NCBI GenBank assembly: GCA_016176335.1
Contig: JACOXI010000004.1
Coordinates: 146,303-210,302 of the forward strand
Direction of reading: 5' to 3'
Length of the DNA: 64,000 nt
From: Candidatus Daviesbacteria bacterium
GTDB lineage: Bacteria; Patescibacteriota; Microgenomatia; Daviesbacterales; UBA10151
Part shown: positions 78-64,000 of the stretch, piece after piece
Numbering within the stretch: position 1 is the stretch's first letter
How the letters are laid out: each line of letters starts with the position of its first letter
Program-made: the position numbers and the translations under genes
The notes under the pieces: model-generated
The model's input: only the letters and a program-made list of their open reading frames with translations
What the model was told of the DNA's origin: nothing
Databases searched by the model: none

Positions 78-1811
78 CTACCAAAGATAGATATTTTTAG
101 ATCGTTGTCCCAAAATAAGACTGGCAATTGGATCATCTGGAAAAAGCTGTAAAGTTTTAAGAATAAATTGCCTGCCGCTTTCTATATACTGATTATTTAG
201 AAGAAAAAGACCTAACCTTAAATATGAAACATGATTGCCAAATTGGTAGGAAGTAGGGTCTAATTTGGCAGGGTCTATTATTGGCAATTGTTTCTGATTA
301 ATCGTTTCCGTTGTGGTGAGTACTACCGCAAAATCATCAATATAGACCAATTTCCATGCTTCATCTTTGATGACCGATTGTAAAAAATTCCTGCCCCAGG
401 GAGTTTGATCTGTGTGGGAAAAAATAATTGTTTTAAAGCCATATATTTTTTCCAGTTCCTTAAAATTATTATAGTCAGATTGGCCTGGTATGTAAATTCC
501 GTTAAAAAATTGAGCAGGATAAGCCTCCGGCCTGCCGTCAACAAAAATTTGGTATTTTGGGAAGGCTCTATAAATTATGTAGCTTCCAATATCAAAATTA
601 TTAAATAAGGGTTTCGGCAAATCTTTTGAAATCATAAAATCCAAAGCCCCTTTGGTGCTTTCCGCAAATTCTAAGTTTGGCCTGACTGGTTGGTCATTAA
701 AACGGTAATAATCCCCGTTTAGATAAAAATAACTTTCAAATAACAGAAGTGCGGCAGCTACTATGGTCAGTGTTTTTGTTAACTTGTTCCAGGGAATGAC
801 ACCAAAATTTTGCATAGTGGCTGGTAGGGATAGAAAAACTAGATATGGGAAGCTCCTGACGTTTAATAAAGCCAGAACCAGACCACCAACTGGCAGCAGG
901 ATATTTTTCATTTGCCAGTTTTTTCTGAAAAAGGCGACCAGTAGTGAAAGGCCTATCAGCACTGCTGATAATTTAACAAATAAAAAGTTAGGGTCTTTGA
1001 AATTGATGCTTTCCAAAAGGAACATGGTCTGATTCTCCACAATGGTGTAACCGTAATTTTTAGTAACATTGAGGGGGTATATTAAGCCTGTCAAGCCATT
1101 AGGATTGATAAGACTTATCAGGATCGATAGCAACAATACCGTACTCAACAACCTTATCTTCCTGCTTATTGAGTGGATTAGGAAAACAGCTTGCAAGGCA
1201 AGGCCTACAAAAAAATAGATATGGGTATTAATCCAGATCAGCTGAATTATAGGTAAAAAGAAAATTAACTTTCCTGCTGTGTCATTGCGAGGATCCTGAG
1301 CGTTAGTCGAAGGAGACGAAGCAATCTGATTATTTTGTGAGATTGCCACGCTCACTGTGTTCGCTCGCAATGACGATGTGAACTTTTCCAGAATATAATA
1401 AGTTAAAGCCGTAAATAGAAAGCTAAAAATTTCCGGCCGCAGCTCTGTTCTTTCCCGCAAAACATGAAGGAATATAAATCCCACAGGCAGAAGTAATGCT
1501 GTTTTTTCTTTTGGGATAATTTTTATGATTAATAAAACAGAAGAGAGGAAAATGACAATTTTCAAAAAAAGTAAAGGCGTAAGACCAACAGTTTGATGGA
1601 AAAAGTATACTAAAACTTCAAAAAGCCAATGAGTATTTATAAAGGGGAAATCCGGATTGGTATAAGAGAAAAGATTGGTTTTGGGAACTTGATGTGTCTG
1701 AACAATAATTTCTCCCAGTTTAAGATGTCTTCCCAAATCTTGATCAAACGCGCGATCTGTCCTAAACAAAAATGAGAAAGTAAAAAAAAGCAGCAGAATT
1801 TTAATCCACAT
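78..1811 (-). CDS. large polytopic membrane protein, GT-C-like glycosyltransferase or similar; function uncertain
   Basis: 577-aa ORF. The N-terminal two thirds are hydrophobic with many predicted TM helices, and there is a C-terminal soluble domain. It carries an in-frame GC-rich palindromic insert at 1281-1374. Confidence 0.55.
   Translation of the reverse strand: MWIKILLLFFTFSFLFRTDRAFDQDLGRHLKLGEIIVQTHQVPKTNLFSYTNPDFPFINTHWLFEVLVYFFHQTVGLTPLLFLKIVIFLSSVLLIIKIIPKEKTALLLPVGFIFLHVLRERTELRPEIFSFLFTALTYYILEKFTSSLRANTVSVAISQNNQIASSPSTNAQDPRNDTAGKLIFFLPIIQLIWINTHIYFFVGLALQAVFLIHSISRKIRLLSTVLLLSILISLINPNGLTGLIYPLNVTKNYGYTIVENQTMFLLESINFKDPNFLFVKLSAVLIGLSLLVAFFRKNWQMKNILLPVGGLVLALLNVRSFPYLVFLSLPATMQNFGVIPWNKLTKTLTIVAAALLLFESYFYLNGDYYRFNDQPVRPNLEFAESTKGALDFMISKDLPKPLFNNFDIGSYIIYRAFPKYQIFVDGRPEAYPAQFFNGIYIPGQSDYNNFKELEKIYGFKTIIFSHTDQTPWGRNFLQSVIKDEAWKLVYIDDFAVVLTTTETINQKQLPIIDPAKLDPTSYQFGNHVSYLRLGLFLLNNQYIESGRQFILKTLQLFPDDPIASLILGQRSKNIYLW
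1281..1374. repeat. 94-bp nested GC-rich palindromic element (GTCATTGCGAG...CTCGCAATGAC), in-frame within a CDS
   Basis: Nested inverted repeats are read directly from the sequence. Shared termini TCCTGAGCG...AGTCGAAGGA also occur at 28243 and 62906. There are no stop codons in the host frame. Confidence 0.6.
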
Positions 1812-1838
1812 GCCAAAATTGTATCACGCCACCAGTTC

Positions 1839-2546: not shown

Positions 2547-2590
2547 AAAATTATTATATACTATTACTGTGTAGGTGTACCCACAGAACC

Positions 2591-2649
2591 ATTGCGTGAT
2601 TATTTGCGCGATTATTGCGCGACCAGCCTCGACTAGACGTCGAGTCTAG
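2591..2649 (+). promoter_or_regulatory. three tandem 11-12 bp repeats (TTGCGCGATTA-like), a CTAGAC-N5-GTCTAG palindrome and a TATAAT -10 box upstream of Fic
   Basis: Repeats at 2591-2602, 2603-2614 and 2615-2624. Palindrome at 2633-2649. TATAAT at 2662-2667. Confidence 0.5.
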
Positions 2650-2674
2650 GCGGGTATATGGTATAATTAAAGGT

Positions 2675-3733
2675 ATGTTTGATCCTATTTACTCAATATC
2701 ATCTAAAACAATTTCCAATATGACCGAGATTGCGGAAATCAAAGCAATCGTGGAAAGATCCAAAGTACTACCTTTAAATGAGGCACAACTTCGGAGACAG
2801 GCAATTTTGCGGATGGCCCATACTTCTACTTCTATTGAAGGTAATAAACTGGCCCAATTTGAAGTGGGTAAGCTGATAGAAGGTAAAGCAGTACGTGCTC
2901 CCCAAAAAGATATTTTGGAGGTGGAAAGTTACTATAAAGCTTTAAAGATTTTGGAGCAAATGTCCAAATCAAGACATGATATTACCTTTGAGGACATACT
3001 GAACTTGCACAAAATGGTCATCCAAGGCCAAGTGGACAAAGAAAAAGTTGGTAAGTTCAGACCATCTGATGTGTATGTATTGGGTGATCTGGGCGACGGA
3101 CGCGAAATGTTAAGGTTTAAAGCTCCCCCTGCCACAGTAGTGCCTGATTTGATTTCCGATTTATTAAGCTGGTTGAAACAATCAAAAAAACAAGGCGTGC
3201 ACCCAATTATACGGGCAGGTATATTACATCTTGAGTTTGTCTCCATCCACCCCTTTACAGATGGAAATGGTAGGGTGGCGAGACTCTTGACACAACTCCT
3301 GCTTTACAGAGATGGTTGGGATTTTAGAAAAATTCTGGTTTTGGAGGATTACTATAATCGCGACCGATTGTCTTATTACAATGCGGAGCAAGAAGTTCAA
3401 GGTAAACACTACAAAAAAGGTGTTGATTTTACCTTCTGGCTGGAATATTTTACAACGGGCTTTTTGGTGGAGGCAAGAAAAGTATTGGAGCAAATCCAAT
3501 CTATTGGTTTTGGTAAGGTCAGCAAAAAATCTGATCAGATATTTTTGGATCCGGATGAGATTCAGATCATGGATTTTTTGGCAACCACCGGCAGAATTAC
3601 CTCTGATGATGCCCGAGACATTTTAAAAGTCGCCAAAAGAACCGCTCAATTAAAGCTGAAAAATCTGTCAGATAAAAGATTACTTAGGATAAACGGTAAA
3701 GGTCCCAGTACTTACTACACTATTGCGCGATAA
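2675..3733 (+). CDS. Fic family protein (Fic_N + Fic + C-terminal wHTH)
   Basis: HPFTDGNGRVARLL Fic motif. N-terminal TSTSIEGN inhibitory-helix-like motif. ATG at 2675 with an AAAGG SD. The track ORF from 2615 starts at TTG inside the repeat array. Confidence 0.85.
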   Translation: MFDPIYSISSKTISNMTEIAEIKAIVERSKVLPLNEAQLRRQAILRMAHTSTSIEGNKLAQFEVGKLIEGKAVRAPQKDILEVESYYKALKILEQMSKSRHDITFEDILNLHKMVIQGQVDKEKVGKFRPSDVYVLGDLGDGREMLRFKAPPATVVPDLISDLLSWLKQSKKQGVHPIIRAGILHLEFVSIHPFTDGNGRVARLLTQLLLYRDGWDFRKILVLEDYYNRDRLSYYNAEQEVQGKHYKKGVDFTFWLEYFTTGFLVEARKVLEQIQSIGFGKVSKKSDQIFLDPDEIQIMDFLATTGRITSDDARDILKVAKRTAQLKLKNLSDKRLLRINGKGPSTYYTIAR

Positions 3734-3759
3734 CTTGCGCGATTATTGCGCGATTGACA
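3722..3759 (+). promoter_or_regulatory. second array of three TTGCGCGAT(T/A) repeats overlapping the Fic stop codon, followed by a TTGACA -35-like box
   Basis: ATTGCGCGATAAC, TTGCGCGATTA and TTGCGCGATTG sit in tandem. TTGACA at 3754-3759, about 114 bp upstream of the RRM gene. Confidence 0.45.
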
Positions 3760-4756: not shown

Positions 4757-5416
4757 TTACGGGGTTGCCATGTCCAGCTTCGGCAGAATTTTTTTGGAGG
4801 CAAGATATTGTAAGATATGTTTGACCACCACGTATGATATGGCAATTCCGGTTGCAAAAAGTAATCTTTCAGAGATAACAACAGGGATCAAAGAATTCCA
4901 AACCGCAGGCGGTAAATTAAAAACCCAAATCCAGGCGGCCCCGCCTACGGAGTGGGCTGTAAAGGTGGCTCCCAAACTCTTCATCCATAAATTAGACCTG
5001 AATCTGTAAGCAATCAAAGGTATAAGCCAGAATAGAGTGTAATATGGGACATGCCTGCCATTTGGGTGAGCTATAAATGCAATGATAGCCAAAATAGGGA
5101 CTAGTAGTATCCACTTTCCCCTCCCCTTCTGAATTGTTGCAAAATAATAGACAGCAAAAAGAGTCGGGAATAATCTAATGATGGCACCTTGTGTCCAGGG
5201 CACTTCCTTTATTAGATTATTGGTAACCAAAACAGTAAAAACTGAAGCTATCCCAAAAATAGGTCCTAAGAAAACTCCGGCAATTGGGGCAAAAAAATCA
5301 AATAAAGTAAAAGAAACATTTGATCCGGCCAGCTTATTAAAAGGAACCTGCAAAGAGGCAAAACCTAAAATGGAGAATAAAACAAAAAAGACCAACGCTT
5401 TGTTGAATCTTGCCAT
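4757..5416 (-). CDS. small polytopic membrane protein, possibly an ECF-type substrate-capture (S) component
   Basis: 219 aa with about 6 TM helices. It is translationally coupled to the DHFR-like gene. The family assignment is tentative. Confidence 0.4.
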   Translation of the reverse strand: MARFNKALVFFVLFSILGFASLQVPFNKLAGSNVSFTLFDFFAPIAGVFLGPIFGIASVFTVLVTNNLIKEVPWTQGAIIRLFPTLFAVYYFATIQKGRGKWILLVPILAIIAFIAHPNGRHVPYYTLFWLIPLIAYRFRSNLWMKSLGATFTAHSVGGAAWIWVFNLPPAVWNSLIPVVISERLLFATGIAISYVVVKHILQYLASKKILPKLDMATP

Positions 5417-5634: not shown

Positions 5635-5988
5635 CTAGGGATTAAGGGGAGCGCGGTTAAGCTCTGGATCTCTATAGAATAGACCTTCCCCAACTGTAGA
5701 AAAGGGATCTTGCGTACCAGCAGGGACGAAAAATACGACTCCTCTTTCGGCAAAAGAACTTAGCGGTGGTCCTTCCACAACAAGAATTTCTTCTCTTCTT
5801 AGACTACGTTTAGCTCCCACACCTGGCCTTTCTAATTCCACGGGTTCTTCAAATAACGAAGCTATGAAACCAATCACTCTTCCTACTCGACTTCCTGGTA
5901 TAGTCCTTATAGAAATCTCTTCTGACTTGTCTGCGAAATCCAGCTCAGCTATACCGAGAGCGCGTAGTCCAAACCATTTTTCTCCCAT
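5635..5988 (-). CDS. hypothetical protein in a GC-elevated inter-tRNA segment
   Basis: 117-aa ORF. Composition is atypical for the window. No recognisable motif. Confidence 0.25.
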   Translation of the reverse strand: MGEKWFGLRALGIAELDFADKSEEISIRTIPGSRVGRVIGFIASLFEEPVELERPGVGAKRSLRREEILVVEGPPLSSFAERGVVFFVPAGTQDPFSTVGEGLFYRDPELNRAPLNP

Positions 5989-7106: not shown

Positions 7107-7108
7107 AA

Positions 7109-9772: not shown

Positions 9773-9985
9773 TCCTTTTTGCAAGGTGTTCCTATATTTG
9801 AAGATTTTGATTCGGGAAAGGACAAAAAAACATTACAAAAATATATAGAAAAGTTTTCGATCGATAAAGGTATTATGCTTTCTCGTCATCGTCTGGTAAT
9901 GGTTTTACAAAAAATAGCATAATCAATTAGGGCATAGCTGCAGAAGCTAATCCCCCCTCAAAAGGGCAATTCCTTCTATATTGTA

Positions 9986-10486
9986 TTGATTGAACCGGAA
10001 TCAAAAACTAAAGTGGATATTTTTGACTATACTCAATCTCCAAAAGAACTGGTAGGAGTTCCTTTTCATGGGTATGTAGTGAATATACAAAGTATTGAAG
10101 ACCAGCTTGTAAAAACAGTTCTTGATACCTCAAAAGTTGTAGACAGGATTGTGGTAGATCCCAAACAGTTCCAGGATGCCAGATTGATGATGCAGGCAGC
10201 TGATATGAAGAAGGCTGAAGAAAACTGGAAAAGCAGAAAGTTTAAAAAATATCCCAGATCATTAGTGAAAGCTTTGGAGAAAGCCTGGGATATTGTCAGG
10301 AAAAATCCTGATTTGAGTAAGGAAAAGCCACATAGAAAATCAAAACCCTACATCTGCCCAGATTGCTCGCCTCGCTCTCGCCTCGATTCAGCGAAGCGGT
10401 TCGCAGGCGAAGCGGGTGTAAGTACATTACGCTTTCCCATTACATCCATGCAGCAGATATACAAAACTTTAGGCTACATAGAGTAG
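9986..10486 (+). CDS. hypothetical protein
   Basis: 166-aa ORF. The C-terminal 20 residues are encoded by a GC-rich repeat element (10365-10417). Confidence 0.5.
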   Translation: MIEPESKTKVDIFDYTQSPKELVGVPFHGYVVNIQSIEDQLVKTVLDTSKVVDRIVVDPKQFQDARLMMQAADMKKAEENWKSRKFKKYPRSLVKALEKAWDIVRKNPDLSKEKPHRKSKPYICPDCSPRSRLDSAKRFAGEAGVSTLRFPITSMQQIYKTLGYIE

Positions 10487-13297: not shown

Positions 13298-13370
13298 GCG
13301 CCCGTAGCTCAGTGGATAGAGCAGGACGGTTCTAACGTCAAGGTCGGGGGTTCGAATCCCTCCGGGCGCG
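13298..13370 (+). tRNA. tRNA-Arg (anticodon TCT)
   Basis: Acceptor GCGCCCG/CGGGCGC. D-arm AGCTCAGTGGATAGAGC. Anticodon loop GTTCTAA. T-arm GGGGG-TTCGAAT-CCCTC. Confidence 0.9.
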
Positions 13371-13462
13371 CTAGTTTGAAATTTTCCAATGAATTGGGAA
13401 ATTCTCAAACTATCTGCCAATGAGGGTTCAACTGCGCCGCTTCGCAAGAAGCTAGCTGTTCG

Positions 13463-13487
13463 TTCCCGCCTTTGGCGGGACGTTTTA
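13463..13487 (+). terminator. rho-independent terminator-like hairpin CCCGCC-TTT-GGCGGG followed by a T-tract
   Basis: Perfect 6-bp GC stem, then ACGTTTTAT. It lies between tRNA-Arg and a 15-bp duplicate of the tRNA 3' end. Confidence 0.5.
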
Positions 13488-13502
13488 TCCCTCCGGGCGC
13501 GC
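13486..13502 (+). repeat. direct repeat of the tRNA-Arg 3' end (ATCCCTCCGGGCGCG), att-like
   Basis: The 15-nt stretch is identical to tRNA positions 13356-13370. Confidence 0.6.
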
Positions 13503-13570
13503 AGCGTAATAAATTGCTTCCGCAATTTAAACGCTGCTGAGACGTAAAAATCTCTGATTTTGTACGTCTC
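13501..13570 (+). repeat. two adjacent perfect hairpins (GCAGCGT..AAATTGC-TTCC-GCAATTT..ACGCTGC and GAGACGTA-N16-TACGTCTC)
   Basis: Inverted repeats read directly, at 13501-13537 and 13539-13570. Confidence 0.55.
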
Positions 13571-13639
13571 GCCATTTGGGAAATTGCGAAGTCGTTTTTG
13601 TTATGATAAATTCAACCTAATAAGATTAAAGAAAGTAGG

Positions 13640-15422: not shown

Positions 15423-16226
15423 ATGGGTATTTTAACTGTCTTGCCATGCTGTTTTATTTTTTTATCATTTATCAATTTTAATCCCCTGCTTTCCTTGGAA
15501 AGAACTTTTGCCCAACCTATTTACCAGCTTAAGAAAATATTTAACCCCCAAATAATTAAACCTAAAAATAGCTACACCATAGTTTTGGTAGGTGATTCCA
15601 TGACCGATTACCTGGGTTCTGCCGACTATTTGAAAGAAAACCTCAAAACTTATTATCCCCAAAAGCAAATAAACATAAAAAACTTTTCTGTCGGATCAAC
15701 CAACATCCTGACCCTGCCGGATCGTTTACAAAACCTGACCAATTATAATGGCAAAATTTCCCAAGCTATTCTAAACACGGACTTTGATTTGATACTGATC
15801 GAATCTTTTGGTCATAATCCCCTGTCTGAATTTTCCCAAAATGACGGACTTAAAAAGCATAATGAGGTTTTAGATCAGGCTCTGGTAATGATAAGGCAAA
15901 GGCAACCACAAGCCCGGGTCATCTTTTTGGCCACCATTGCTCCGCATCTGGACAGGTATGCTGAAGGGGTTGCCAACCTCACAACGGAAGTAAGAAGGGA
16001 GTGGGCAAAACAAAGAGCAGCCTATATCAAAAATCATATCGAATATGCCAAAAGGCATAAATTGCCTTTAATTAACATTTATGAAAAATCTTTGGATGGC
16101 GGGGGAGGAGGAAATATAGATTATATTAATACAGGAGATTTCATACACCCTTCCCCCACAGGCATTAAATTTATCAGCAGGGAGATTGCAGATTTTATAT
16201 TTAAGAAGCGGATATTGCCCTTGTAG
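15423..16226 (+). CDS. SGNH/GDSL family hydrolase
   Basis: N-terminal signal or TM. VLVGDSMTDY GDS block. C-terminal DxxH-like FIHPS. Confidence 0.65.
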   Translation: MGILTVLPCCFIFLSFINFNPLLSLERTFAQPIYQLKKIFNPQIIKPKNSYTIVLVGDSMTDYLGSADYLKENLKTYYPQKQINIKNFSVGSTNILTLPDRLQNLTNYNGKISQAILNTDFDLILIESFGHNPLSEFSQNDGLKKHNEVLDQALVMIRQRQPQARVIFLATIAPHLDRYAEGVANLTTEVRREWAKQRAAYIKNHIEYAKRHKLPLINIYEKSLDGGGGGNIDYINTGDFIHPSPTGIKFISREIADFIFKKRILPL

Positions 16227-17178
16227 ATTTTAAATAATTAATTAACTTTTTAAGCCCTTCTTCAAGCTCAACCTTAGGTTCCCAGCCCAAATTTTGTTTG
16301 GCTTTGGTGATATCAGGACATCTTCTTTGCGGATCATCTTGCGGCAAATCTTGAGTAAATTCCACGTCCGATGTGGAACCGACCAATTCTTTAACCTTTC
16401 GGGCCAGCTCTAAAATAGTAAATTCATTTGGATTTCCCAAATTATACACTTCCCCTTTTTCTCCCTTCTCCATGGCCAGTATTATTCCATCTATCATATC
16501 CGAGATATAACAAAAGGATCTAGTTTGCTTCCCGTCACCAAAAATTGGTAAGGGTTTATTTTGTAATGCAGCCATCACAAACTCAATCACTACCCTGCCG
16601 TCTCGGCCCATTCTGGGGCCATATGTATTAAAAATTCGGATAATTCTGCCATCCAATTCTTTAGACCTCACAAAAGCTGAAGTTATAGTTTCTCCAAATC
16701 TTTTGGATTCATCATAAACAGATCTGGGCCCGGTGGTTGAAACATTACCTCGGTATTCTTCTTTCTGGGGGTGTTCCTCCGGATCACCATACACTTCCGA
16801 GGTTGAGGCAAACAAAAATTTTGCACCGAGTTTAACTGCTATTTCGCAAAGCTTCCAGGTACCTAAAGTATTAACCCGCATAGTCTCAAAAGGGTGAGAT
16901 ATATAACTCTTGGAGTTATTCTCATTAGGGGATGCGGGAGAGGCCAGCTGATAAATACAATTGACATTTGACAATTCAGATTTGACATTTTCTGGAAACG
17001 CCTTAGATACATCATGATCTATAAATTGGAAATTTGGGTTATTTTTTAAATGTTTGACATTATCCAGGTTGCCTGTTAGCAAATTATCTACACATACAAT
17101 TTGGTTGCCTTGCTCGATTAACTTATCGCAAAGATGTGATCCCAAAAACCCTGCCCCACCAGCTACAATAATTTTCAT
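16201..17178 (-). CDS. UDP-glucuronate decarboxylase / UDP-xylose synthase (NAD-dependent epimerase/dehydratase)
   Basis: MKIIVAGGAGFLGSHL Rossmann motif and an NTYGPRM..DGRVV motif. The track ORF extends to 17364, but the conserved start is ATG at 17176-17178. Confidence 0.85.
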   Translation of the reverse strand: MKIIVAGGAGFLGSHLCDKLIEQGNQIVCVDNLLTGNLDNVKHLKNNPNFQFIDHDVSKAFPENVKSELSNVNCIYQLASPASPNENNSKSYISHPFETMRVNTLGTWKLCEIAVKLGAKFLFASTSEVYGDPEEHPQKEEYRGNVSTTGPRSVYDESKRFGETITSAFVRSKELDGRIIRIFNTYGPRMGRDGRVVIEFVMAALQNKPLPIFGDGKQTRSFCYISDMIDGIILAMEKGEKGEVYNLGNPNEFTILELARKVKELVGSTSDVEFTQDLPQDDPQRRCPDITKAKQNLGWEPKVELEEGLKKLINYLKSTRAISAS

Positions 17179-17188
17179 TAAGATACTA

Positions 17189-17233
17189 TTATATCTTAAA
17201 TCTTCTATCAGATAAATATGGATTGGGTTTACG
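17189..17233. repeat. 45-bp direct repeat, copy 1 (duplicate of the dinB 3' end: last 14 codons plus stop)
   Basis: 43 of 45 nt are identical to 18167-18211. Both differences are synonymous in the dinB frame. Confidence 0.8.
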
Positions 17234-18166
17234 TTTGCATGTTGACAAATAATGTAACAATACTTTAATACTAAGACAACAGATGCCTGCTGAACTCCCA
17301 CCGGAAACTTATAGAAGATTATCTCAAGCCGATTTTCAACATATCCAGGACGACGATACAACACCTTCTATACAACCTCTGCCAACAAGTGAAACTCCTG
17401 TCTTTGATGTTCGCACACTAAGTGTGTGGTATGGAGACCGTTTTGCATTAGACATCTCTGATGGGTTTCAAATTCCCCAGGACAGTATTACGGCAATAAT
17501 GGGTCCTTCCGGTTGTGGCAAGAGTACTTTTTTGCGTTGTTTAGATCGGTTAATAGACTTGACAGGAACGGCAGTAGTTAAGGGAAAGGTAGTATTTAAT
17601 AACGAAGATATTCTGGGAGAAAAAGTTGACACCGTCCTTCTTCGCAAAAGAATTGGAATGGTTTTCCAAAAACCAAATCCATTTCCCAAGTCCATTTATG
17701 ATAATGTAGCATTCGGTGCACGAATTTGGGGATACCGAGGAAACATGGATGATTGGGTAGAATCATGTTTAAGACGGGCAGTACTATGGGATGAAGTAAA
17801 AGATACTTTAGACAAAGGCGGTCTGGCCCTTTCCGGAGGACAGCAACAACGTCTGTGCATTGCTCGCGCACTAGCAGTTAAACCAGAGGTCTTGCTTATG
17901 GATGAACCATGCTCGGCACTTGATCCCATTGCTACTTATGGAATAGAGCAACTCATGATTCAATTAAAACAAGAACATACAGTCATACTTGTTACACATA
18001 ATGTGCAACAGGCTGCGCGTGTTTCTGATTATGTAGGTTTTTTCTTAGGAAATGGCCAAAAACCAGGTAGGTTAGTGGAATTCTCAACTAATGAAAAAAT
18101 TTTTACAAGCCCAAACCTTCAACAAACAGAGGCATATATAATGGGCAGATTTGGATAGGTTGCTTT
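17234..18166 (+). mobile_element. 933-bp insertion carrying a lone pstB with its own TTGACA-containing promoter region, bracketed by 45-bp direct repeats
   Basis: Direct repeats at 17189-17233 and 18167-18211. The insertion separates dinB from the UDP-xylose synthase gene, which would otherwise be 10 bp apart on the minus strand. Confidence 0.5.
17283..18158 (+). CDS. pstB: phosphate ABC transporter ATP-binding protein PstB (orphan; no pstSCA nearby)
   Basis: Walker A GPSGCGKST. IGMVFQKPNPFPKSIYDNVAFG. LSGGQQQRLCIARALAV. C-terminal ...TEAYIMGRFG, typical of PstB. Confidence 0.88.
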   Translation: MPAELPPETYRRLSQADFQHIQDDDTTPSIQPLPTSETPVFDVRTLSVWYGDRFALDISDGFQIPQDSITAIMGPSGCGKSTFLRCLDRLIDLTGTAVVKGKVVFNNEDILGEKVDTVLLRKRIGMVFQKPNPFPKSIYDNVAFGARIWGYRGNMDDWVESCLRRAVLWDEVKDTLDKGGLALSGGQQQRLCIARALAVKPEVLLMDEPCSALDPIATYGIEQLMIQLKQEHTVILVTHNVQQAARVSDYVGFFLGNGQKPGRLVEFSTNEKIFTSPNLQQTEAYIMGRFG

Positions 18167-18211
18167 TTATATTTTAAATCTTCTGTCAGATAAATATGGA
18201 TTGGGTTTACG
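18167..18211. repeat. 45-bp direct repeat, copy 2 (the genuine 3' end of dinB)
   Basis: See copy 1. Confidence 0.8.
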
Positions 18212-19390
18212 GCGGATATCCGCGGTTCCTAAAAGTATTCCTCTTTGCAGAGTAAATTCACCGTAGCGGTTATTTATGCTATCAATTGTTTGTATGACCT
18301 TTTCTTGCCGACTGATTTCAGGCAAAAGACTCAAATTTTGAGGATTTTGTGGCTTCAGATTAGAGATAGACACACCAATCATACGGATCTTACCTCCAGG
18401 CCATATCTGATTAAAAATTTTCCAAGCAGTCTTAAATATCTCCAGCCCGTCATTGATATATGGAATGGTTATCTGCATACTTTCTCCATTAAACACTTTC
18501 CCAGCTGATCGGTACCAACAATGGACAGTTTTACCAACCAATTTTTTCGCCCGCAATCTTCGGGCTATTAATTCTGCTAGCTTAAATAGAATTTGCTTAA
18601 TCTCCACCGAATCATCAGTGTCGTGGTCAATGGTGTGCCGGTGGCCTATTGATTTGACCTCTGTTTTTTGCCAAAAAGGAATAATTGGACTCTCATCTAT
18701 TCCCCTGGCCATGTTATACAAGATTTGACTGTAACTTTTAAATGAGGCTAAAAGCCACGGTAAAGGAACCTGGCGCAGAGTCTTGAAGTTAAATATCCCC
18801 ATGTTGTTAAGTCTTGTTTTAATCCTTGATCCTATGCCGCAGATTTGATCTAGGTTGATGGTATCCAATATCGCAATGGCTGCTTTTTGATCAGGAATAA
18901 CCACCAAACCATCAGGCTTTTGTAAAGATCCGGCCAGCTTGGCCATTAATTTGTTGTATGAAATCCCAATTGAACAAGTGATCCACTCACCTACTTCTTG
19001 CTGTATACGTTTTTTGATCTCTTGAGCCAATTCTACTGTACCCTGTAACCTGTTACCTGTAACCTCTAGAAACACTTCGTCAATTGAAAATACTTCCAAA
19101 TATGGGCTGTAGTCCTTTAAAATACCTAAAAAACGTTTAGTTACCTCCAGATACTTATCAGAATCCCCTTGAACCAAAATAATTTGCGGGCATAATTTTT
19201 TAGCCTCCCATATTTGCATTCCTGTTTTTACTCCAAACTGTTTAGCCTCAATAGAGGCTGCCCCAATTACTGTCCTTTCCATACGATCTCCACCAGTTAC
19301 CCCAATAGGTTTTCCTCTTAATCTGGGATTTGCCTGTTGTTCAACAGTGGCAAAATAGCTGTTAAAATCAATATGGATTATGCTTCGCAT
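18167..19390 (-). CDS. dinB: DNA polymerase IV (Y-family)
   Basis: IDFNSYFATVEQ N-terminal motif. Palm, thumb and little-finger architecture over 407 aa. Confidence 0.9.
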   Translation of the reverse strand: MRSIIHIDFNSYFATVEQQANPRLRGKPIGVTGGDRMERTVIGAASIEAKQFGVKTGMQIWEAKKLCPQIILVQGDSDKYLEVTKRFLGILKDYSPYLEVFSIDEVFLEVTGNRLQGTVELAQEIKKRIQQEVGEWITCSIGISYNKLMAKLAGSLQKPDGLVVIPDQKAAIAILDTINLDQICGIGSRIKTRLNNMGIFNFKTLRQVPLPWLLASFKSYSQILYNMARGIDESPIIPFWQKTEVKSIGHRHTIDHDTDDSVEIKQILFKLAELIARRLRAKKLVGKTVHCWYRSAGKVFNGESMQITIPYINDGLEIFKTAWKIFNQIWPGGKIRMIGVSISNLKPQNPQNLSLLPEISRQEKVIQTIDSINNRYGEFTLQRGILLGTADIRRKPNPYLSDRRFKI

Positions 19391-26527: not shown

Positions 26528-28237
26528 ATGAGCAAGTTTAACATTACCTTAGGACTTCTGTTTTTCCTGTTCGTTATTCCCTGTATCATGTTTCCTGCCT
26601 ATGCTATAGTTGATCCCCTGTCTGTTCCCAATAACAAATTTGGCATCCATATTATCTCCGCCACCCCCAATGAATCCTCTCCTGCTGCCCAGCTTGTCAA
26701 TACCAACGGAGACTGGGGTTATCTGACCTTCCTCATAGAGAGTAAGGATAGAAATGAAAATAAATGGCAGACATTTTTTAATGATCTAAGGAGGCGTCAC
26801 CTTATTCCCATTGTTAGACTGGCCACAAAACCCGTCAATGAGCATTGGGAAAAACCCTATGAGGGGGAGGAAGAAGCTTGGGCAGATTTTTTAGATAAAT
26901 TAAATTGGCCTACCAAAAACAGATACATTGTCATTTATAATGAACCTAACCATGGCAAAGAATGGGGCAATGTTGTTGATCCTGCCACATATGCCAAAGT
27001 TTTGGATAAAACCATTGATGCTTTAAAAGAAAAATCTCCGGATTTCTTTGTAATGAATGCCGGCTTTGATGCTTCAGCCCCACACCAACCACCCAATTAC
27101 TTTGATGAGGTTAGTTTCCTGTCGGAAATGGATAAGTCTGTCCCGGGTATATTTGAAAAACTGGATGGATGGGTTTCACACTCCTATCCTAATCCCGAGT
27201 TTGCAGGTTCACCAAATGGAATCGGGCGAGGAACAGTTAGAACCTGGTTTTGGGAACTGCAGCAATTAAGGATTCTGGGAGTAACTAAAAATCTTCCTGT
27301 TTTCATAACTGAAACAGGTTGGAAACATGCCGAGGGGTTAGTGTATAATCCCAACTTTCCAGCTGAAGACACTATTGCAAATTATTACAGAAATGCTTTT
27401 GAGGATGCTTGGTCCGCCCAACGTATTGTGGCTGTAACTCCTTTTATACTCAATTACCAGCAATTCCCCTTTGACCATTTCTCTTTCAAAAAAGTTAACT
27501 CCGACAGCTTTTATACTTCTTTCCAAACTATAAAAGATCTGCCCAAGACAAAGGGACAGCCCATATGGGAAAACTTAGCAAAGCTGACTAAGGGTGAAGT
27601 TTATTCTTCTGTGGTGGCAGGAGAAACATATACTATCTACCTTACATTTGAGAATGTTGGTCAATCCATTTGGAATGGCTCCACAGGTGATCAGGTAAGA
27701 TTGATTCCTTTGGAAGGAGGAAAAGAATTAGGTATTTCAGAAATTGAATTACCCAAGGATAAAAAGATTGAACCAGGTCAAAACTATACTTTTACCATTA
27801 AACTCAAAGCTCCTAAAAGCGGCTCTTTTAAAGTATCTTTAAATTTATTTGAGGGTCAAAAACCATTTAATTCAAAGCCTTTACAATTTACCACCCAGGT
27901 TAAAGCACCTGTCATCTTAAAAATCCTGACCAAATTAAAATGGAAGGATTCGGCAGCAGGAGAGTATATTTTGAAAACCTCTGGGGCAATCGGTGAATCC
28001 ACCCAAAAGGTGATTATAAATTCGGCCGGCAGATCCGAACAATTTGAAGCCAGGTACCTGTTGCCTGATTACACCTTTAAATTCAGTTTGGAAAGACCCA
28101 ACTACAAACTTCAAACCATCCAACAAACTCTCAAAAGCGGTGAAAATACCCTTAATTTTGGAGAACTCCAACCTGATCTTATATCAAATATCTTTAATCC
28201 TTTAGAGCTTTGGAAACTTCTTCCCTTTTCAAAATAA
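26528..28237 (+). CDS. secreted glycoside hydrolase, clan GH-A (GH5-like), with C-terminal beta-sandwich domains
   Basis: Signal peptide. NEPNHG (catalytic acid/base Glu) and ITETGW (nucleophile Glu) motifs. About 250 aa of C-terminal extension. Confidence 0.6.
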   Translation: MSKFNITLGLLFFLFVIPCIMFPAYAIVDPLSVPNNKFGIHIISATPNESSPAAQLVNTNGDWGYLTFLIESKDRNENKWQTFFNDLRRRHLIPIVRLATKPVNEHWEKPYEGEEEAWADFLDKLNWPTKNRYIVIYNEPNHGKEWGNVVDPATYAKVLDKTIDALKEKSPDFFVMNAGFDASAPHQPPNYFDEVSFLSEMDKSVPGIFEKLDGWVSHSYPNPEFAGSPNGIGRGTVRTWFWELQQLRILGVTKNLPVFITETGWKHAEGLVYNPNFPAEDTIANYYRNAFEDAWSAQRIVAVTPFILNYQQFPFDHFSFKKVNSDSFYTSFQTIKDLPKTKGQPIWENLAKLTKGEVYSSVVAGETYTIYLTFENVGQSIWNGSTGDQVRLIPLEGGKELGISEIELPKDKKIEPGQNYTFTIKLKAPKSGSFKVSLNLFEGQKPFNSKPLQFTTQVKAPVILKILTKLKWKDSAAGEYILKTSGAIGESTQKVIINSAGRSEQFEARYLLPDYTFKFSLERPNYKLQTIQQTLKSGENTLNFGELQPDLISNIFNPLELWKLLPFSK

Positions 28238-28242
28238 ATCCT

Positions 28243-28266
28243 GAGCGTAGTCGAAGGATTGCTATA
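28243..28266. repeat. minimal copy of the GC-rich palindromic element (ATCCTGAGCGTAGTCGAAGGAT)
   Basis: Shares both terminal motifs with the copies at 1291-1315 and 62906-62968. Confidence 0.55.
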
Positions 28267-29012: not shown

Positions 29013-29057
29013 GTAGTAGGTGTTCAGGTGCGACCTTAACCAAGGTGCGTCCTTAAC
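29013..29057 (+). repeat. 46-bp repeat, left copy (inverted partner at 33703-33753)
   Basis: GTAGTAGGTGTTCAGGTGCGACCTTAACCAAGGTGCGTCCTTAACA. About 41 of 46 nt match the reverse complement of 33703-33753. Confidence 0.75.
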
Positions 29058-40809: not shown

Positions 40810-40887
40810 CAAGCCACGGGGGTTCGTTATTCGAGCAAAGCGAGAATACGAGATTTATCCCTCCAGGGGCGTAACTAATTGGAGTTT

Positions 40888-41811: not shown

Positions 41812-42043
41812 ATAATCAAAATTTTTGGCATTATACTACCTCCAGCCATTTTTTTCATCTCTAGTGAGCCGGCTAGTACCTTAAACCTGCTTCGCCCGCT
41901 CAGCGAGGCGAGCAGACTGCGGGAATTCTCCAAATTATTCCTTCATGACGGTCTAAACTCCGAATTTGCCTACCTTTTTCTTTAGAAAAAGGCAAGCTCT
42001 GCTTATACATTTGGCCTAAAAAATGCATAGTAAAGTACAACAG

Positions 42044-54420: not shown

Positions 54421-54517
54421 GGTTATATAGGTTATATATTTCATAGTTTAAGTATATTGACTTCGGGTTAGTTTTGGTCTAATGTAAAACTACAATATTT
54501 TTTGAAAAGTTCTTTTG

Positions 54518-54541
54518 CGAGCAAAGCGAGCAGTCCCGATG
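54518..54541. repeat. GC-rich motif GCGAGCAAAGCGAGCAG plus hairpin GTCCCGAT-gata-TATCGGGAC
   Basis: The 12-mer GAGCAAAGCGAG also occurs at 40823-40834, next to tRNA-Arg. An 8-bp perfect stem follows. Confidence 0.45.
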
Positions 54542-54690
54542 ATATATCGGGACAAAATTTTTGCGTTCCTCGTTTTTTGTTCTTTTTAACCGGCGACTTG
54601 TGCCGGAATTTAATCGGGGCTTTGCAGAGCTCTGGCTGACCCCTCCCAGTCAGAGCCAACCTTCGGACTCCTTTAGGATTTCCAATTCAG

Positions 54691-58076: not shown

Positions 58077-58077
58077 T

Positions 58078-60004: not shown

Positions 60005-60005
60005 A

Positions 60006-61898
60006 TTATTTTTTTTGAGACTTTTTTAAAAACCTTCTTCGGTAGAGAAGAACAGCCAATATAGCCCCGTATAAAATGACCATAGCCAAAACTATTCCCA
60101 TTGCAAAAAGCGGTATTGTTTGAAAAAGAAAGAATGGTTCAACTGAAAGCCCTTTCGTAAATTTCATACTACCTACATAAACTGCAATCTCATCATCAAA
60201 TTTATCAAACAGTGATTTGGTGCGGATATTATATTCAAAGGTGACCATACCAAATGCCGGGATTGGACCTAAATTCTTACTAAGGGAGTCCAAAATGCTA
60301 ATTTTTTTACTACCTACCGCAAAAGCTGCTGAAGGAAAAACAGCATTGCCTGAATTTGTAATGTTAACCTTTATTTTTGAGGGGAATCCCGCAAAAATGG
60401 TTTTTGGTACATCAATTTGTACTCCGATTGCAGGTTTGCCTAAAAAATCAACATCAGTCAAAGAAACTTTGACATCATGGGAATCTTGCCCAATATATTT
60501 GTATGATCCTGCAGGCACCGGTTGCTCCGAAGAAGCACCTCTTATTGCAAAAACAAAGTGATTTAGATCCAACTTATTAAAGTAATCTACTCCTCCTGTG
60601 GTGTTCTCCCAAGTCGGGTCAACCATTACCCAACCTTTTCTCTCATTCCAGTATTCCGGCCAAGCGTGTAATACATCTTTAGTCAGGGATAGCGGTCGTA
60701 AAGCAGGATTTGCCGTATATGCGAAGCCGTCGAGTTCTCTTGCTGCAATTCCGGCGGCCCGGGCCAATGCTATAAACAAATCTGTAAATTCCATGCAGAC
60801 AGCGGAAGTTGGGTTGGAAAGAACTGTTGTGGCACCTAATCTTTCAATGTTACCCTCCTTAAGTCTTGCAGGGTTGTATTTTAGGGAATTGACAACATAC
60901 CTATAGATAAGTTCTACTTTCTTGGAAGAATCAGCTGGCGGATTGGCACCTAAAATGCCTTCCAATGTTGTCATAATTTGAGGATTATCTTTTTCCCAAT
61001 ACTTTGAGCCTTCAGTATACTTTTTCCTTAAATTTTCACTTATTACCGGTTCTTTGGCTTTGGAGGTGGTGTAAAGTTTTGCGGAACCTAACACTTTAAC
61101 ATCCAATCTCTGACCCCTTGTAAGTTTATACCAGGCCAAATAGTTACCGTCCAAATCTACAGTTACATTAACAGGTGGCGGCGTAATTCTCTGAAATATC
61201 ACGTCCTGAAAAGCTGTATCAGGAGGTAATGCTATGTTTGTCAGGATTGGAACTATATTATTATTCTCAAGATGAAAGGTCAGGTCAAAATCAAACAGTT
61301 GATTGTTCCCGAAACTTGCAGAAACCCCCGCAGTTGCCAGTTGATCTTTGTTGAAGGTAAAAAACACTTTACCGGAACTTGAAGTCTGACTTTTGGGTGT
61401 TGGACTGATTAGGGTTGGCTCACCAAAGCTTTGGGGTACGGACAAGGTTAAGTTGTAATTTTCCAAATTGGAAACTGAAGAAATTCTGGGAGCACGCACT
61501 TCCCAAATCTTGCCAATTCTTTCCGCAAAATCTTTGGATTTAAATTGCAAAGTCCAAGGTATCTCTTTTCCCAAACCTGCCACCTGTTGGTTAAACTTAA
61601 CCGTGATAATTGTTGAGGTATCTTGTAGCTTTGATGATACTTCCAAAGCTCCACCCGGGTCAGAGCCTTTAATGTCAAAAATGTCTGTTGCTCCGATTGT
61701 CAGTTTAAACTCGCTGGCATAATACTGGGAAGTTAAATTACGCAAGGTGACTTTTTCGGTGACAGTTGTGATTCCGTCGGATGAGATGTCATACACCACA
61801 TCATAAGAAGTGGCAAACTCTTGAGCATAAGTTTTTGGGACAAAGAAAAGGGCAAAAAATAAACAAAATACCAACAAAATCTTCTTAAACATTCCCAC
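60006..61898 (-). CDS. transglutaminase-like enzyme, exported, with a C-terminal TM anchor
   Basis: Signal peptide. Core AVCMEFTDLFIALARAAGIAAR (Cys-His-Asp transglutaminase fold). C-terminal TM plus a basic tail. Confidence 0.75.
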   Translation of the reverse strand: MGMFKKILLVFCLFFALFFVPKTYAQEFATSYDVVYDISSDGITTVTEKVTLRNLTSQYYASEFKLTIGATDIFDIKGSDPGGALEVSSKLQDTSTIITVKFNQQVAGLGKEIPWTLQFKSKDFAERIGKIWEVRAPRISSVSNLENYNLTLSVPQSFGEPTLISPTPKSQTSSSGKVFFTFNKDQLATAGVSASFGNNQLFDFDLTFHLENNNIVPILTNIALPPDTAFQDVIFQRITPPPVNVTVDLDGNYLAWYKLTRGQRLDVKVLGSAKLYTTSKAKEPVISENLRKKYTEGSKYWEKDNPQIMTTLEGILGANPPADSSKKVELIYRYVVNSLKYNPARLKEGNIERLGATTVLSNPTSAVCMEFTDLFIALARAAGIAARELDGFAYTANPALRPLSLTKDVLHAWPEYWNERKGWVMVDPTWENTTGGVDYFNKLDLNHFVFAIRGASSEQPVPAGSYKYIGQDSHDVKVSLTDVDFLGKPAIGVQIDVPKTIFAGFPSKIKVNITNSGNAVFPSAAFAVGSKKISILDSLSKNLGPIPAFGMVTFEYNIRTKSLFDKFDDEIAVYVGSMKFTKGLSVEPFFLFQTIPLFAMGIVLAMVILYGAILAVLLYRRRFLKKSQKK

Positions 61899-64000
61899 TA
61901 TTGTAACATCTTCCTTGCTAGATATTGGCCTGTGTAAGAGGATTTTATTTTGGCAATATCTTTGGGAGAACCTTCAGCAATAACCTGTCCGCCCTGATCC
62001 CCGCCTTCCGGGCCTAAATCTATTACCCAGTCGGTATTTTTAATTACATCCAAATTATGCTCAATAATAATTACAGTATTTCCGAAGTTTACTAATTTTC
62101 TTAATATATTTAATAGCCTTTCTATGTCCGCAAAATGCAAACCGGTTGTGGGTTCATCCAGAATATAAATTGTCTGTCCTGTCGGTCTTTTGGAAAGCTC
62201 TGCAGATAGTTTAATTCTTTGGGCTTCACCTCCGGATAAGGTCGGGGCACTCTGGCCCAATTTTATATAACCTAAACCTACATCATCGAGCACTTGAAGT
62301 TTATTTTTAATATTTGGTATATTTTCAAAAAATCCCAAAGCCTCCGCAACGCTCATGATCAAAACCTCGGCTATATTTTTATCTTTGAAATGAATGTCCA
62401 AAGCTTCTCTGTTATATCTTGCACCATTGCAGCCTTCACAAGTCACATACACATCCGGCAAAAATTGCATTTCTATTTTCAGCTGACCTTCACCCTCGCA
62501 AACCTCACACCTACCCCCCTTAACATTAAAAGAAAATCTTCCAGGCCCATAACCTTTGATCTTGGCTTCTCGAGAGGAAGCAAATAAATCTCTGATAAAA
62601 GTAAAAGCCCCGGTGTAGGTGGCCGGATTTGAACGGGGAGTGCGACCAATTGGTGATTGGTCAACCAAAACCACTTTATCTAATAATTCCAACCCTTGCA
62701 ATTCCCGAAAACGGCCAGGTTTTTCTCTGGATCCGTAGATTTTTTGAGCCAAGGCCTTATATAAAATATCGTGTATAAGGGTTGACTTACCTGATCCTGA
62801 AACGCCGGTTATTGCAATAAATTTGCCTAAAGGAAAACTGACATTGATATTTTTTAAATTATGTTCGGCAGCACCCAAAAGTTTTAAATGACCATTTTGA
62901 GTAGATCCTTCGACTCGTCTTCGACCCTGAGGCTCAGACCCGAAGGGCTGCGCTCGCTCAGGATGACCTACGGTCACCTGTTTTTTTCCGGAGAGATATT
63001 GCCCTGTCAAAGATCTAGCGCTCTTTTTGATCTCTGAAGATGTTCCTATAGCCACAATTTCCCCTCCATGCTCCCCTGCTCCGGGTCCGATTTCAATCAA
63101 AAGGTCGGAATTTTCCATAGTTTCCGCATCATGTTCATTCACAATCACGGTATTACCCAAATCACGAAGTTTTTTTAAAGTATCAATCAATCTGGAATTA
63201 TCCCGCTGATGCAGTCCGATTGAGGGTTCATCCAAAACATACAGCACTCCTGATAATCCCGACCCGATTTGGGAGGCAAGCCTGATTCTTTGTGATTCTC
63301 CGCCTGCCAAGGTCATAGAAGCTCTGTCCAAAGTTAGATAATCCAACCCTACATTGATTAGAAATTGAATTCTGGATTTAATCTCCTTTAAAATCGGTGT
63401 AGCAATTTGCATTTCCCGATCAGAATAGGAGACATTTTTTACCCATTCCAGTGCTTGAGAAATAGATTGGCTTGTGACTTCCGCAATATTTAATCCTTCT
63501 ATGGTTATGGATAATGCCTCCTCTTTCAACCTTGCTCCGGCGCAACCCGGACAGATTTCTTTCACCATGTATTTTTCAATCTCCGCCTTAACATAATCTG
63601 ATTCGGAACTGTCATATCTTTCTTTAAGATATGACACTAAACCCTGAAAAGTTGAATAAAAATGAGTCCATTTTCCCTGCCTGTTTCTGCCCTCAACTTT
63701 AAACTGTTGTTCCCCTGTCCCCCTAAGCAATACTTTTTTTGCTTCCTCGGGAAATTTTTCCAATCTGGTATTCATATCAAAACCGTACTTTTTTCCCACA
63801 GCCTCAATTACCCTGGTAAACCAGGTTTCATTAGTGGCCAGTTTGCTCATGGGTAAAATGCCTCCCTCTGCAATGGAAAGAATTGGATTCAAAATCGTTG
63901 CCTCGTCAATCAAAAGAAGCGATCCTAAACCGGTGCAAAGGGAACAGGCACCATGAGGTGAATTAAAAGATAAAAGACGGGGCTCAATTTCTGAAAAAGC
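61898..64000 (-). CDS. uvrA: excinuclease ABC subunit A (partial; N-terminus beyond the window end)
   Basis: Two ABC ATPase modules, zinc-finger Cys pairs and GVSGSGKST. The reading frame continues past 63913 to the window edge. In-frame GC-rich insert at 62906-62968. Confidence 0.93.
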   Translation of the reverse strand, partial: AFSEIEPRLLSFNSPHGACSLCTGLGSLLLIDEATILNPILSIAEGGILPMSKLATNETWFTRVIEAVGKKYGFDMNTRLEKFPEEAKKVLLRGTGEQQFKVEGRNRQGKWTHFYSTFQGLVSYLKERYDSSESDYVKAEIEKYMVKEICPGCAGARLKEEALSITIEGLNIAEVTSQSISQALEWVKNVSYSDREMQIATPILKEIKSRIQFLINVGLDYLTLDRASMTLAGGESQRIRLASQIGSGLSGVLYVLDEPSIGLHQRDNSRLIDTLKKLRDLGNTVIVNEHDAETMENSDLLIEIGPGAGEHGGEIVAIGTSSEIKKSARSLTGQYLSGKKQVTVGHPERAQPFGSEPQGRRRVEGSTQNGHLKLLGAAEHNLKNINVSFPLGKFIAITGVSGSGKSTLIHDILYKALAQKIYGSREKPGRFRELQGLELLDKVVLVDQSPIGRTPRSNPATYTGAFTFIRDLFASSREAKIKGYGPGRFSFNVKGGRCEVCEGEGQLKIEMQFLPDVYVTCEGCNGARYNREALDIHFKDKNIAEVLIMSVAEALGFFENIPNIKNKLQVLDDVGLGYIKLGQSAPTLSGGEAQRIKLSAELSKRPTGQTIYILDEPTTGLHFADIERLLNILRKLVNFGNTVIIIEHNLDVIKNTDWVIDLGPEGGDQGGQVIAEGSPKDIAKIKSSYTGQYLARKMLQ
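62906..62968. repeat. GC-rich palindromic element inserted in-frame in uvrA (adds about 16 aa: HPERAQPFGSEPQGRR)
   Basis: Termini TCCTTCGACT...CGCTCAGGA match the TCCTGAGCG/AGTCGAAGGA family. Local GC is about 65% against about 38% flanking. No frame disruption. Confidence 0.6.

Follow-up and report, generated by a model that had tools for sequence, protein, structure and literature searches.

A window of 64,000 nucleotides (nt) from a Candidatus Daviesbacteria genome, with a GC content of ~39%, holds short palindromic segments that recur between its genes and, in three cases, inside them: in a gene for a multi-pass membrane protein, in the gene at 9986-10486 and in the nucleotide-excision-repair gene uvrA. 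These segments are probably small palindromic repeats of the REP (repetitive extragenic palindrome) kind, a variant of the CGTC/TGTC-tagged superfamily, which survive in frame where they fall into permissive protein loops. The units form a pan-bacterial family and are not local to Daviesbacteria, and each of the three in-gene copies is an insertion that keeps the frame and is absent from most orthologs or from all homologs. An initial annotation, made from the window alone, had already proposed a REP-like palindromic family that is tolerated in translated sequence, and the ortholog comparisons, the structure of the family as a whole and the literature agree with it.

A unit can be divided into a tag, a short stem, a GAG box, an interior, a CGA(A) box, the complementary stem and a C/T tail, and it is found singly or as one arm of a head-to-head doublet. 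The consensus is YGTC-A-N4-GAG-[variable hairpin]-CGA(A)-N4'-T-C, where N4 and N4' are complementary and the arms are separated by 11-50 nt. Stems of two types prevail in the window: B (ATCCT...AGGAT) and A (ATTGC...GCAAT). The shared termini that had been seen in three copies are confirmed as exact pairs: TCCTGAGCG occurs three times against 0.20 expected, a count reached in 1 of 100 shuffles, and every occurrence is paired with an exact AGTCGAAGGA, at 1294-1314 (+), 28239-28258 (+) and 62906-62963 (-). The second of these copies, however, spans 28238-28259 and not 28243-28266 as first given. The 94-nt nested palindrome at 1281-1374 was also correctly recognised; it is an inverted doublet with TGTC at 1280-1283 and CGTC (minus strand) at 1372-1375 as its tags and an ATCCT...AGGA unit nested at 1293-1314, and its fold (-22.5 kcal/mol, z = -5.2) was equalled by none of 200 shuffles.

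A looser subfamily is likewise enriched above chance, though more weakly. With at most one mismatch, GAGCRAAGCGAG gives 3 matches against 0.23 expected and GCGARGCGAG gives 7 against 1.68, and the 12-mer GAGCAAAGCGAG is indeed common to two copies (40833-40844 and 54519-54530); on the other hand, one of the seven GCGARGCGAG matches lies within a tRNA-Arg, and the copies at 41884-41915 and 54515-54531 are degenerate. No terminator was called at the 28238-28259 unit, which is also found in an independent contig (L126). A terminator role was considered for the copy at 54515 and rejected, the called terminator at 54533-54553 being an ordinary hairpin directly beside the decayed unit. Three intergenic copies lie 14 to about 190 nt from tRNA genes, a proximity to which we give no weight in a window with seven tRNAs and little intergenic DNA. 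Generic scans of the window for GC islands and inverted repeats were unspecific, with conserved protein motifs and tRNAs dominant, and yielded no secure extra copies.

The same units are widespread elsewhere. The B-type pattern TCCTGAGCG-N(0-30)-AGTCGAAGGA was scanned in IMG/VR viral contigs and in a collection of bacteria with one genome per species, and it matched at least 120 stretches in each; the two boxes of these copies are fixed by the search pattern itself, and the flanks were left free. Among the matches listed, the record titles name Acidobacteriota, Eremiobacterota, Chloroflexi, Verrucomicrobia, Bacteroidota, Alpha-, Gamma- and Deltaproteobacteria, Planctomycetes, Nitrospirales, Clostridia, Fibrobacter, Omnitrophica and groups of the candidate phyla radiation (CPR), including Saccharimonadales, Komeilibacteria and Peribacteraceae, at loci whose GC content ranges from 0.29 to 0.72. 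In the same listed matches, the flanks too are conserved (YGTCA, that is TGTCA or CGTCA, ahead of 146 of 269 B-type units, then T/C-C-T/C), interiors of at least 12 nt are nearly all distinct (123/127), and interiors are prone to form hairpins, with stems of at least five pairs in 54% compared with 25% of shuffles. The A-type (GTCATTGCGAG...GCAATCT) accounts for at least 172 copies in viral contigs, for example GTCATTGCGAGGAGCGAAGCGACGAAGCAATCT.

A second pattern, GTCA-N4-GAGCGAAGCGA-N4/5-TC, leaves the stem free. Of the 128 copies that it returned, 112 show full complementarity between N4 and the 3' side, and 11 different stems are used; GTCA has a pyrimidine ahead of it in 125 of the 128, and 10 of the 11 stem types begin A-T, as do ATCCT/AGGAT, ATTGC/GCAAT and ATTC/GAAT in the window. 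Because both stems, the outer one and that of the inner hairpin, vary by compensating changes while the unpaired boxes stay constant, the units have the signature of an element that is recognised by its structure. Ribozyme and kink-turn readings of the boxes (the hammerhead core CUGANGA/GAAA, loop A of the hairpin ribozyme and a box C/D-type kink-turn) were judged by inspection only and rejected: the boxes misfit the hammerhead core, there are two stems rather than three, and the GA pairs adjoin the outer stem without a 3-nt bulge. In Rfam, the window at gathering threshold returned tRNAs only and eight multi-copy loci returned no match; at a relaxed threshold, one doublet gave only spurious microRNA-precursor matches to its long hairpin.

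Units are found within units. In the doublet at 1281-1374, the common arrangement GTCATTGCGAG-G-AGCGAAGC-GACGAAGCAATCT is replaced by GTCATTGCGAG-G-(ATCCTGAGCGTTAGTCGAAGGA)-GACGAAGCAATCT, and the uvrA unit has a second unit in its interior; taken together, the B unit inside the A unit and this second case indicate that units nest in one another's variable slot. Inverted doublets are also present in L170, L095 and L079, and many copies elsewhere take the form of ~150-nt inverted doublets behind genes (e.g., L170 3650-3805), while most copies in the window are singletons. Neighbouring copies more than 300 nt apart make up 35 same-strand and 4 opposite-strand pairs among the matches listed. At listed loci with a GC content of 47% or less, 8 of 36 copies lie in long open stretches. 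One of these, L174 5456-5476 in Flavobacterium tructae, is a B-type unit inside a very long open reading stretch outside the CPR, and there are seven other such low-GC loci; in-gene copies are therefore not restricted to the CPR.

Of the three host genes, uvrA is the most instructive. Positions 62904-62966 contribute 63 nt in frame, translated as HPERAQPFGSEPQGRRRVEGS, and when the protein is aligned with solved UvrA structures by HMMER, the extra residues fall in the linker ahead of the second ATPase module, just where the initial annotation had put them. This linker has 37 amino acids (aa) in the window, a mode of 23 aa in 114 Daviesbacteria orthologs and 20 aa in the closest ortholog. In an AlphaFold model of the UvrA fragment (mean predicted local distance difference test score, pLDDT, 68.8), residues 347-368, which hold the insert, are coil with pLDDT below 50. 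The best UvrA matches are metagenome contigs at 82-86% identity, with Daviesbacteria proteins reaching ~81%. The closest ortholog (L001) possesses the decayed right end only (GCCGAAGAATCTAC vs GTCGAAGGATCTAC), and lineage P0001/L475, at 82% protein identity, possesses the whole nested composite of 37 aa. When the window is compared with L475, identity at third codon positions is 83% in the element and 50% over the uvrA gene, and two compensating 1-nt indels within the element alter about eight residues. Since third-codon identity is high in the element while the indels shift the peptide frame, it is the nucleotides, not the peptide, that are conserved or homogenised. Metagenomes were scanned for a uvrA allele with a shorter interior and, as a control, for the allele of the window; neither scan gave a match, which shows that the organism is missing from that collection.

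Other Daviesbacteria lineages have comparable sequences in the same protein. HPE..VEGS, the signature of the same B unit, seen at the same linker site, is found in 18 of 120 Daviesbacteria UvrA proteins, and palindrome-type or expanded linkers are found in 37 of the 114 that could be read. Palindrome-type peptides in UvrA linkers and membrane-protein loops include VIPAKAGIQ, LDSRMRGND, HPELVSGS, PACRQAG and SLRAKRGN, among others. Further UvrA insert sites cluster after core positions ~142, 196, 222-226 and 472, and element-bearing linkers are patchy on a neighbour-joining tree.

The product of the membrane-protein gene is 100% identical to the NCBI hypothetical protein HYS96_03380 [Candidatus Daviesbacteria bacterium], which is encoded on a 219-kb contig. 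Counted by alignment, the loop that holds the insert has 39 aa in the window and a mode of 8 aa in the orthologs; the closest of these (73-76% identity) have YLRGPTK where the window reads FTSSLRANTVSVAISQNNQIASSPSTNAQDPRNDTAGK. The loop is expanded at this very site in 32 of 120 orthologs, by at least five different repeat types. In the third gene, the 51-nt insert (DNA fold -15.6 kcal/mol, z = -2.2) lies between two conserved motifs, and its peptide is missing from 10 of 10 aligned homologs. The gene at 9953-10486 aligns only with residues ~86-247 of its ~245-aa family, and because the N-terminal third (the first ~85 residues) is missing from the window, this gene with its 51-nt insert is truncated or a remnant. 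The claim that the three in-gene copies keep the reading frame is thus upheld at each site (63 nt in uvrA, a 39-aa membrane loop and 51 nt in the gene at 9986-10486). Ortholog alignment, which had been suggested as a check that the inserts are lineage-specific, shows them to be lacking in most or all orthologs, although other genomes have the uvrA insert as well, as seen from the 18 proteins with HPE..VEGS and the composite in P0001/L475.

Two explanations had been offered for the preserved frames, namely that the units tolerate translation or that they are selected to insert in multiples of three. Among the matches listed, five of the six frames are open in 220 of 271 units, which argues for tolerance; the length is divisible by three in only 70 of 271, which argues against an intrinsic multiple-of-three insertion. 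The in-frame state is therefore one of survivorship, and the in-frame copies are survivors of selection that were aided by the near absence of stop codons. The units and host genes are collected in Table 1.

Table 1. Palindromic units of the 64,000-nt window and the genes that hold them
Feature	Position	Strand	Remarks
Host gene 1: 577-aa multi-pass membrane protein, no Pfam match	78..1811	-	1281-1374 insert in loop between hydrophobic segments
Left arm of doublet, A-type: TGTC-ATTGC-GAG-[slot]-GACGAA-GCAAT-CT	1280..1327	+	Architecture as in A-type copies of viral contigs
Nested B-type unit: ATCCTGAGCGTTAGTCGAAGGA	1293..1314	+	Occupies position of left arm's variable inner hairpin; no tag
Right arm of doublet, inverted A-type: CGTC-ATTGC-GAG-CGAACACAGTGAGCGTG-GCAAT-CT (minus-strand reading)	1340..1375	-	Tags outward: head-to-head dimer
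Host gene 2: C-terminal two thirds of ~245-aa conserved family (71 representatives)	9986..10486	+	First ~85 residues lacking
51-nt GC-rich palindromic in-frame insert, peptide SPRSRLDSAKRFAGEAG (17 residues)	10367..10417	+	Degenerate composite; one recognisable A-type end, AGATTGC, at 10360-10366
Minimal B-type unit, intergenic: ATCCTGAGCGTAGTCGAAGGAT, no tag	28238..28259	+	Starts at first base after TAA of open reading frame (ORF) 26528-28237; 192 nt upstream of tRNA-His
Intergenic unit: CGTT-ATTC-GAG-CAAAG-CGA-GAAT-AC	40824..40850	+	14 nt past tRNA-Arg(TCG); superfamily consensus with one tag mismatch
Probable degenerate unit, intergenic: GTCTGCT-CGCCTCGCTGAGCGGG-CGAAGCAG (minus-strand reading)	41884..41915	-	Weak membership; fold -11.5 kcal/mol, z = -2.6
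Decayed A-like unit: TTGC-GAG-CAAAG-CGA-GCAG, no tag	54515..54531	+	Compare GTCATTGCGAGCAAAGCGAAGCAATCT in L302
Host gene 3: uvrA	61898..64000	-	Last 700 codons in window; gene then passes window end
B-type unit in uvrA: GGTC-ATCCT-GAGCG-[39-nt interior]-AGTCGA-AGGAT-C (minus-strand reading)	62904..62968	-	Tag GGTC
Second unit, nested in interior slot of uvrA unit	62921..62947	.	Plus: CCCT-GAG-GCTCAGACC-CGA-AGGG; alternatively minus, B-like: TCT-GAG..GTCGA-AGA

The closest known system is the CGTC superfamily, one of the two groups, GTAG- and CGTC-tagged, into which Di Nocera et al. (2013; PMC3733652) divided the REPs, and which includes Neisseria dRS3 and the Rickettsia palindromic elements (RPEs) RPE-4 and RPE-6 (CGTC-4 and CGTC-1, respectively). 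These authors reported CGTC repeats in five phyla, with no mention of the CPR, and found that head-to-head dimers predominate, that REPs insert into palindromes and that intragenic REPs are concentrated in replication and repair genes, including uvrA of Thioalkalivibrio and Opitutus and uvrB of R. conorii (PMC3733652). The units described here share the pyrimidine-GTC tag, the A/T-complementary stem positions 1 and 2, the lack of an adjacent transposase, the copies inside genes, uvrA included, and the entry into palindromes. They also have a short unpaired tail, though not CCA, and some form head-to-head dimers, most of those in the window being singletons. Moreover, VIPAKAGI and LDSRLRGND are listed as peptides of CGTC-1 REPs in the supplement of that study (PMC3733652), and the CGTC-1 peptides VIPAKAGIQ and LDSRLRGND fill the UvrA linker and the membrane-protein loop of other Daviesbacteria.

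The differences lie in the construction of the unit. CGTC-1 to CGTC-4 have a stem of 8-9 bp, a loop of 4-5 nt and a CCA-type tail, whereas the units in the window have a 5-bp stem, conserved GAG and CGA(A) boxes with a 0-40-nt slot between them that takes a hypervariable hairpin or another unit, and a tail of C followed by T or C. Given the 5-bp stem and the boxed interior, they belong to none of the four described CGTC families, and the PMC3733652 supplement lists none of the peptides HPER, SEAK and RNDG. As the tag and the AT-initiated stem are shared, and the stem length, loop and peptides are not, we file them as a variant within the superfamily. Literature searches that covered the DNA strings, typical peptides and palindromic elements in the CPR returned no description of this family or of such inserts in the CPR. 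In-gene REP events, even in uvrA, are already known in kind; the variant structure and the CPR host group are new, as are the nesting in slots, the different palindromes at the same Daviesbacteria loops and the conservation of element DNA above synonymous sites.

Two further systems are likened here by description and not by sequence. As in the RPEs, we see in-frame palindromic inserts in essential genes, in surface loops and in a small-genome, host-dependent bacterium, and the window has what marks an RPE-type insertion, an in-frame palindromic insert in a conserved protein without a counterpart in orthologs. The RPEs were reportedly described by Ogata and co-workers in 2000 and 2002, RPE-1 being said to measure 100-150 bp and to occur in Rickettsia only. 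The units in the window differ in being 20-65 nt long and pan-bacterial, with a CPR host. The small dispersed repeats of Nostoc punctiforme, reportedly described by Elhai and co-workers in 2008, are said to have conserved flanks around a variable hairpin core within 21-27 nt. The variable core, the nested insertions and the copies in genes are alike in the two cases; the Nostoc repeats differ in being cyanobacterial and in their sequences.

REPINs and their RAYT transposases (Bertels and Rainey 2011, PMC3116915; Nunvar 2010; Ton-Hoang 2012) are similar in their short tagged hairpins, in the inverted doublets that are the likely replicating unit and in a presumed single-strand mechanism. They differ in the GTAG tag and in the flanked single-copy RAYT gene, neither of which was found for the units in the window, and REPINs are described as vertically transmitted and lineage-specific, whereas the boxes of our units are identical across phyla. 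MITEs (transposable elements of the miniature inverted-repeat type) in coding sequence, such as the QMITEs reported for Coxiella burnetii (PMC5896051), are also non-autonomous and add residues to proteins. The initial annotation had called the window copies MITE-like, a label that has to be dropped: MITEs have the terminal inverted repeats of a parent insertion sequence and target-site duplications, and the window copies show neither. No direct duplication flanks the copies at 28238, 62904-62968 and 1281-1374, and there is no insertion sequence in the window.

If the segments are REP-like repeats, the units would be non-autonomous, and an enzyme acting in trans, for which a HUH/Y1-type transposase would be the obvious candidate, would copy them in the form of single-stranded hairpins. 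They may land preferentially in existing hairpins, a preference that would explain both the nesting and the accretion of repeats at the same loops. Within genes, only frame-keeping, stop-free copies in permissive loops would survive, and copies would afterwards decay towards the AT-rich composition of the host.

Several points should be kept in mind against this account. A tblastn search with a Y1 transposase from a related Daviesbacteria contig (L002) detected no Y1/HUH gene in the window or in ~2 Mb of flanks of other copies, and the hairpins around that one Y1 gene have a different sequence (CCACCT-N4-AGGTGG). The gene itself was tried as a RAYT and rejected, scoring 53 bits against the 80-bit NCBIfam RAYT cut-off and being flanked by hairpins of another family. 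The CGTC REPs of Di Nocera et al. also have no dedicated transposase (PMC3733652). None of the compared sequences with nucleotide identity above 90% offers an empty site from which to define an insertion junction or a target for the presumed mobility in this genome. There are only ~7 copies per 64 kb, four of them degenerate, and by nearest-neighbour energies the single units are weak hairpins (z +0.7 to -1.8). Finally, many UvrA orthologs have a unit in place of 12 linker residues with the length unchanged (23 aa either way), which is unlike a simple insertion.

A real alternative to transposition is templated short-patch copying from other copies, either by gene conversion or by a switch of template between palindromes where forks stall, with the recipient sequence already similar to a unit or already containing a hairpin. 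Such copying would account for the 23-aa linkers and for the lack of target duplications; it also fits the failure to find a transposase, the P-A-E-R of canonical UvrA where the window has H-P-E-R, the homogenisation of element DNA relative to synonymous sites and the nesting in the slots of other units. We nevertheless think it rather unlikely. When the canonical 23-aa linker of an ortholog with no element (L473) was compared as a possible decayed unit, its DNA showed no convincing leftover similarity to the unit; copies are found at sites with no recognisable prior palindrome, such as 28238 right after a stop codon; and the 35:4 co-orientation is more typical of strand-specific, single-strand transposition. 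An ancestral, selected peptide linker that resembles a repeat by chance would be in keeping with the recurrence of HPE..VEGS and with the lineage that shares the 37-aa composite, yet this is very improbable and is already contradicted by the results, as the peptide is frame-shifted between the two composite-bearing lineages with the DNA conserved, the distribution on the UvrA tree is patchy, the inserts are lacking in aligned homologs of ORF 9986-10486 and in the closest membrane-protein orthologs, and the unit is also found between genes and in unrelated phyla.

It is also conceivable, if distinctly improbable, that the units are selected host elements rather than selfish DNA, acting as structured RNA or DNA sites (mRNA stabilisers, attenuators or protein-binding sites) at the 3' ends of genes, with the in-gene copies being incidental. 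Boxes that are invariant across phyla, co-varying stems, co-oriented copies and the window copy that begins right after a stop codon all speak for a function, as does the predominance of intergenic copies in other genomes; Di Nocera et al. argue, moreover, for a role of many REPs as RNA elements downstream of ORFs (PMC3733652). The absence of an Rfam match in the window, the eight multi-copy loci and the one doublet speaks against it, as do in-gene copies in both orientations (antisense at 1293, sense at 62904), the decay of copies, their low and erratic number in the window and a unit at 28238 that is not terminator-like, and a site-specific function is at odds with different families gathering at the same protein loops. 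REP-like spread may be accompanied by an RNA- or DNA-level host function of the intergenic copies, which does not explain the in-gene pattern. It is barely credible that assembly of the metagenome-assembled genome created the copies as artefacts, through chimeric joins at repeats. Logan contigs of the same organism (L127/L128) do stop at 54620, by tRNA-Lys in GC-rich 54615-54661, and at 62946, inside the uvrA element, which indicates that repeats of this kind break short-read assemblies; however, independent Logan assemblies of two runs (SRR4343435 and SRR4343428) match the copies at 1281-1374, 28238 and 54515 base for base, so that these are not artefacts of one assembly, the reading frames are open, and orthologous genes from other samples have the same unit at the same site.

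Some neighbouring observations should be recorded. In L002, the Y1 (IS200/RAYT-like) gene mentioned above lies between hairpins at 5005-5022 and 5766-5781, which belong to a different REP-like family that may be a true REPtron. Within the window, the last 16 nt of tRNA-Arg(TCT) (13298-13371), ATCCCTCCGGGCGCGC, are repeated exactly at 13487-13502, 117 nt on, and are followed by a 30-nt inverted repeat at 13521-13588; the region 13298-13588 resembles an attL/attR scar left by an integrated element that has almost disappeared. Inverted repeats of 46 nt (29013-29058 and 33709-33754, 89% complementary) enclose 4.65 kb of sequence with genes for a haemolysin-III-like protein and for an efflux set of HlyD, ABC ATPase and MacB-FtsX. 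Clusters of the direct repeat TTGCGCGAT(T/A)A at 2577-2622 and 3708-3753 flank a Fic-domain gene (2615-3733), and a 45-nt direct repeat, 96% identical, is present at 17189-17233 and 18167-18211, at or near the 3' ends of the minus-strand ORFs 16201-17364 and 18167-19390.

Ever since CGTC-type REPs, the Rickettsia RPEs among them, were described, the question has stood of how they multiply, and no transposase has been linked to them. The units provide several handles on this question: the invariant boxes, the co-varying stems, the slot that accepts other units, the strong co-orientation of dispersed copies and the conservation of nucleotides far above synonymous sites within a gene. For the CPR, the finding means that core proteins owe some of their length variation to repeats and not to adaptation, which has consequences for annotation, alignment-based phylogeny and assembly; roughly one third of Daviesbacteria UvrA linkers hold palindrome-derived sequence. 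We can only tentatively suggest, and regard it as doubtful, that YGTC-A-N4-GAG-[slot]-CGA-N4'-TC marks a single superfamily that spreads horizontally across bacteria, in which the slot would be a landing pad for further units and the boxes would be recognised by a widely distributed enzyme that acts on single-stranded DNA. If this were true, such repeats would be a major source of length variation in CPR loops and linkers, intergenic space being scarce, and Daviesbacteria genomes would offer a natural system in which to find the missing enzyme that mobilises CGTC REPs.

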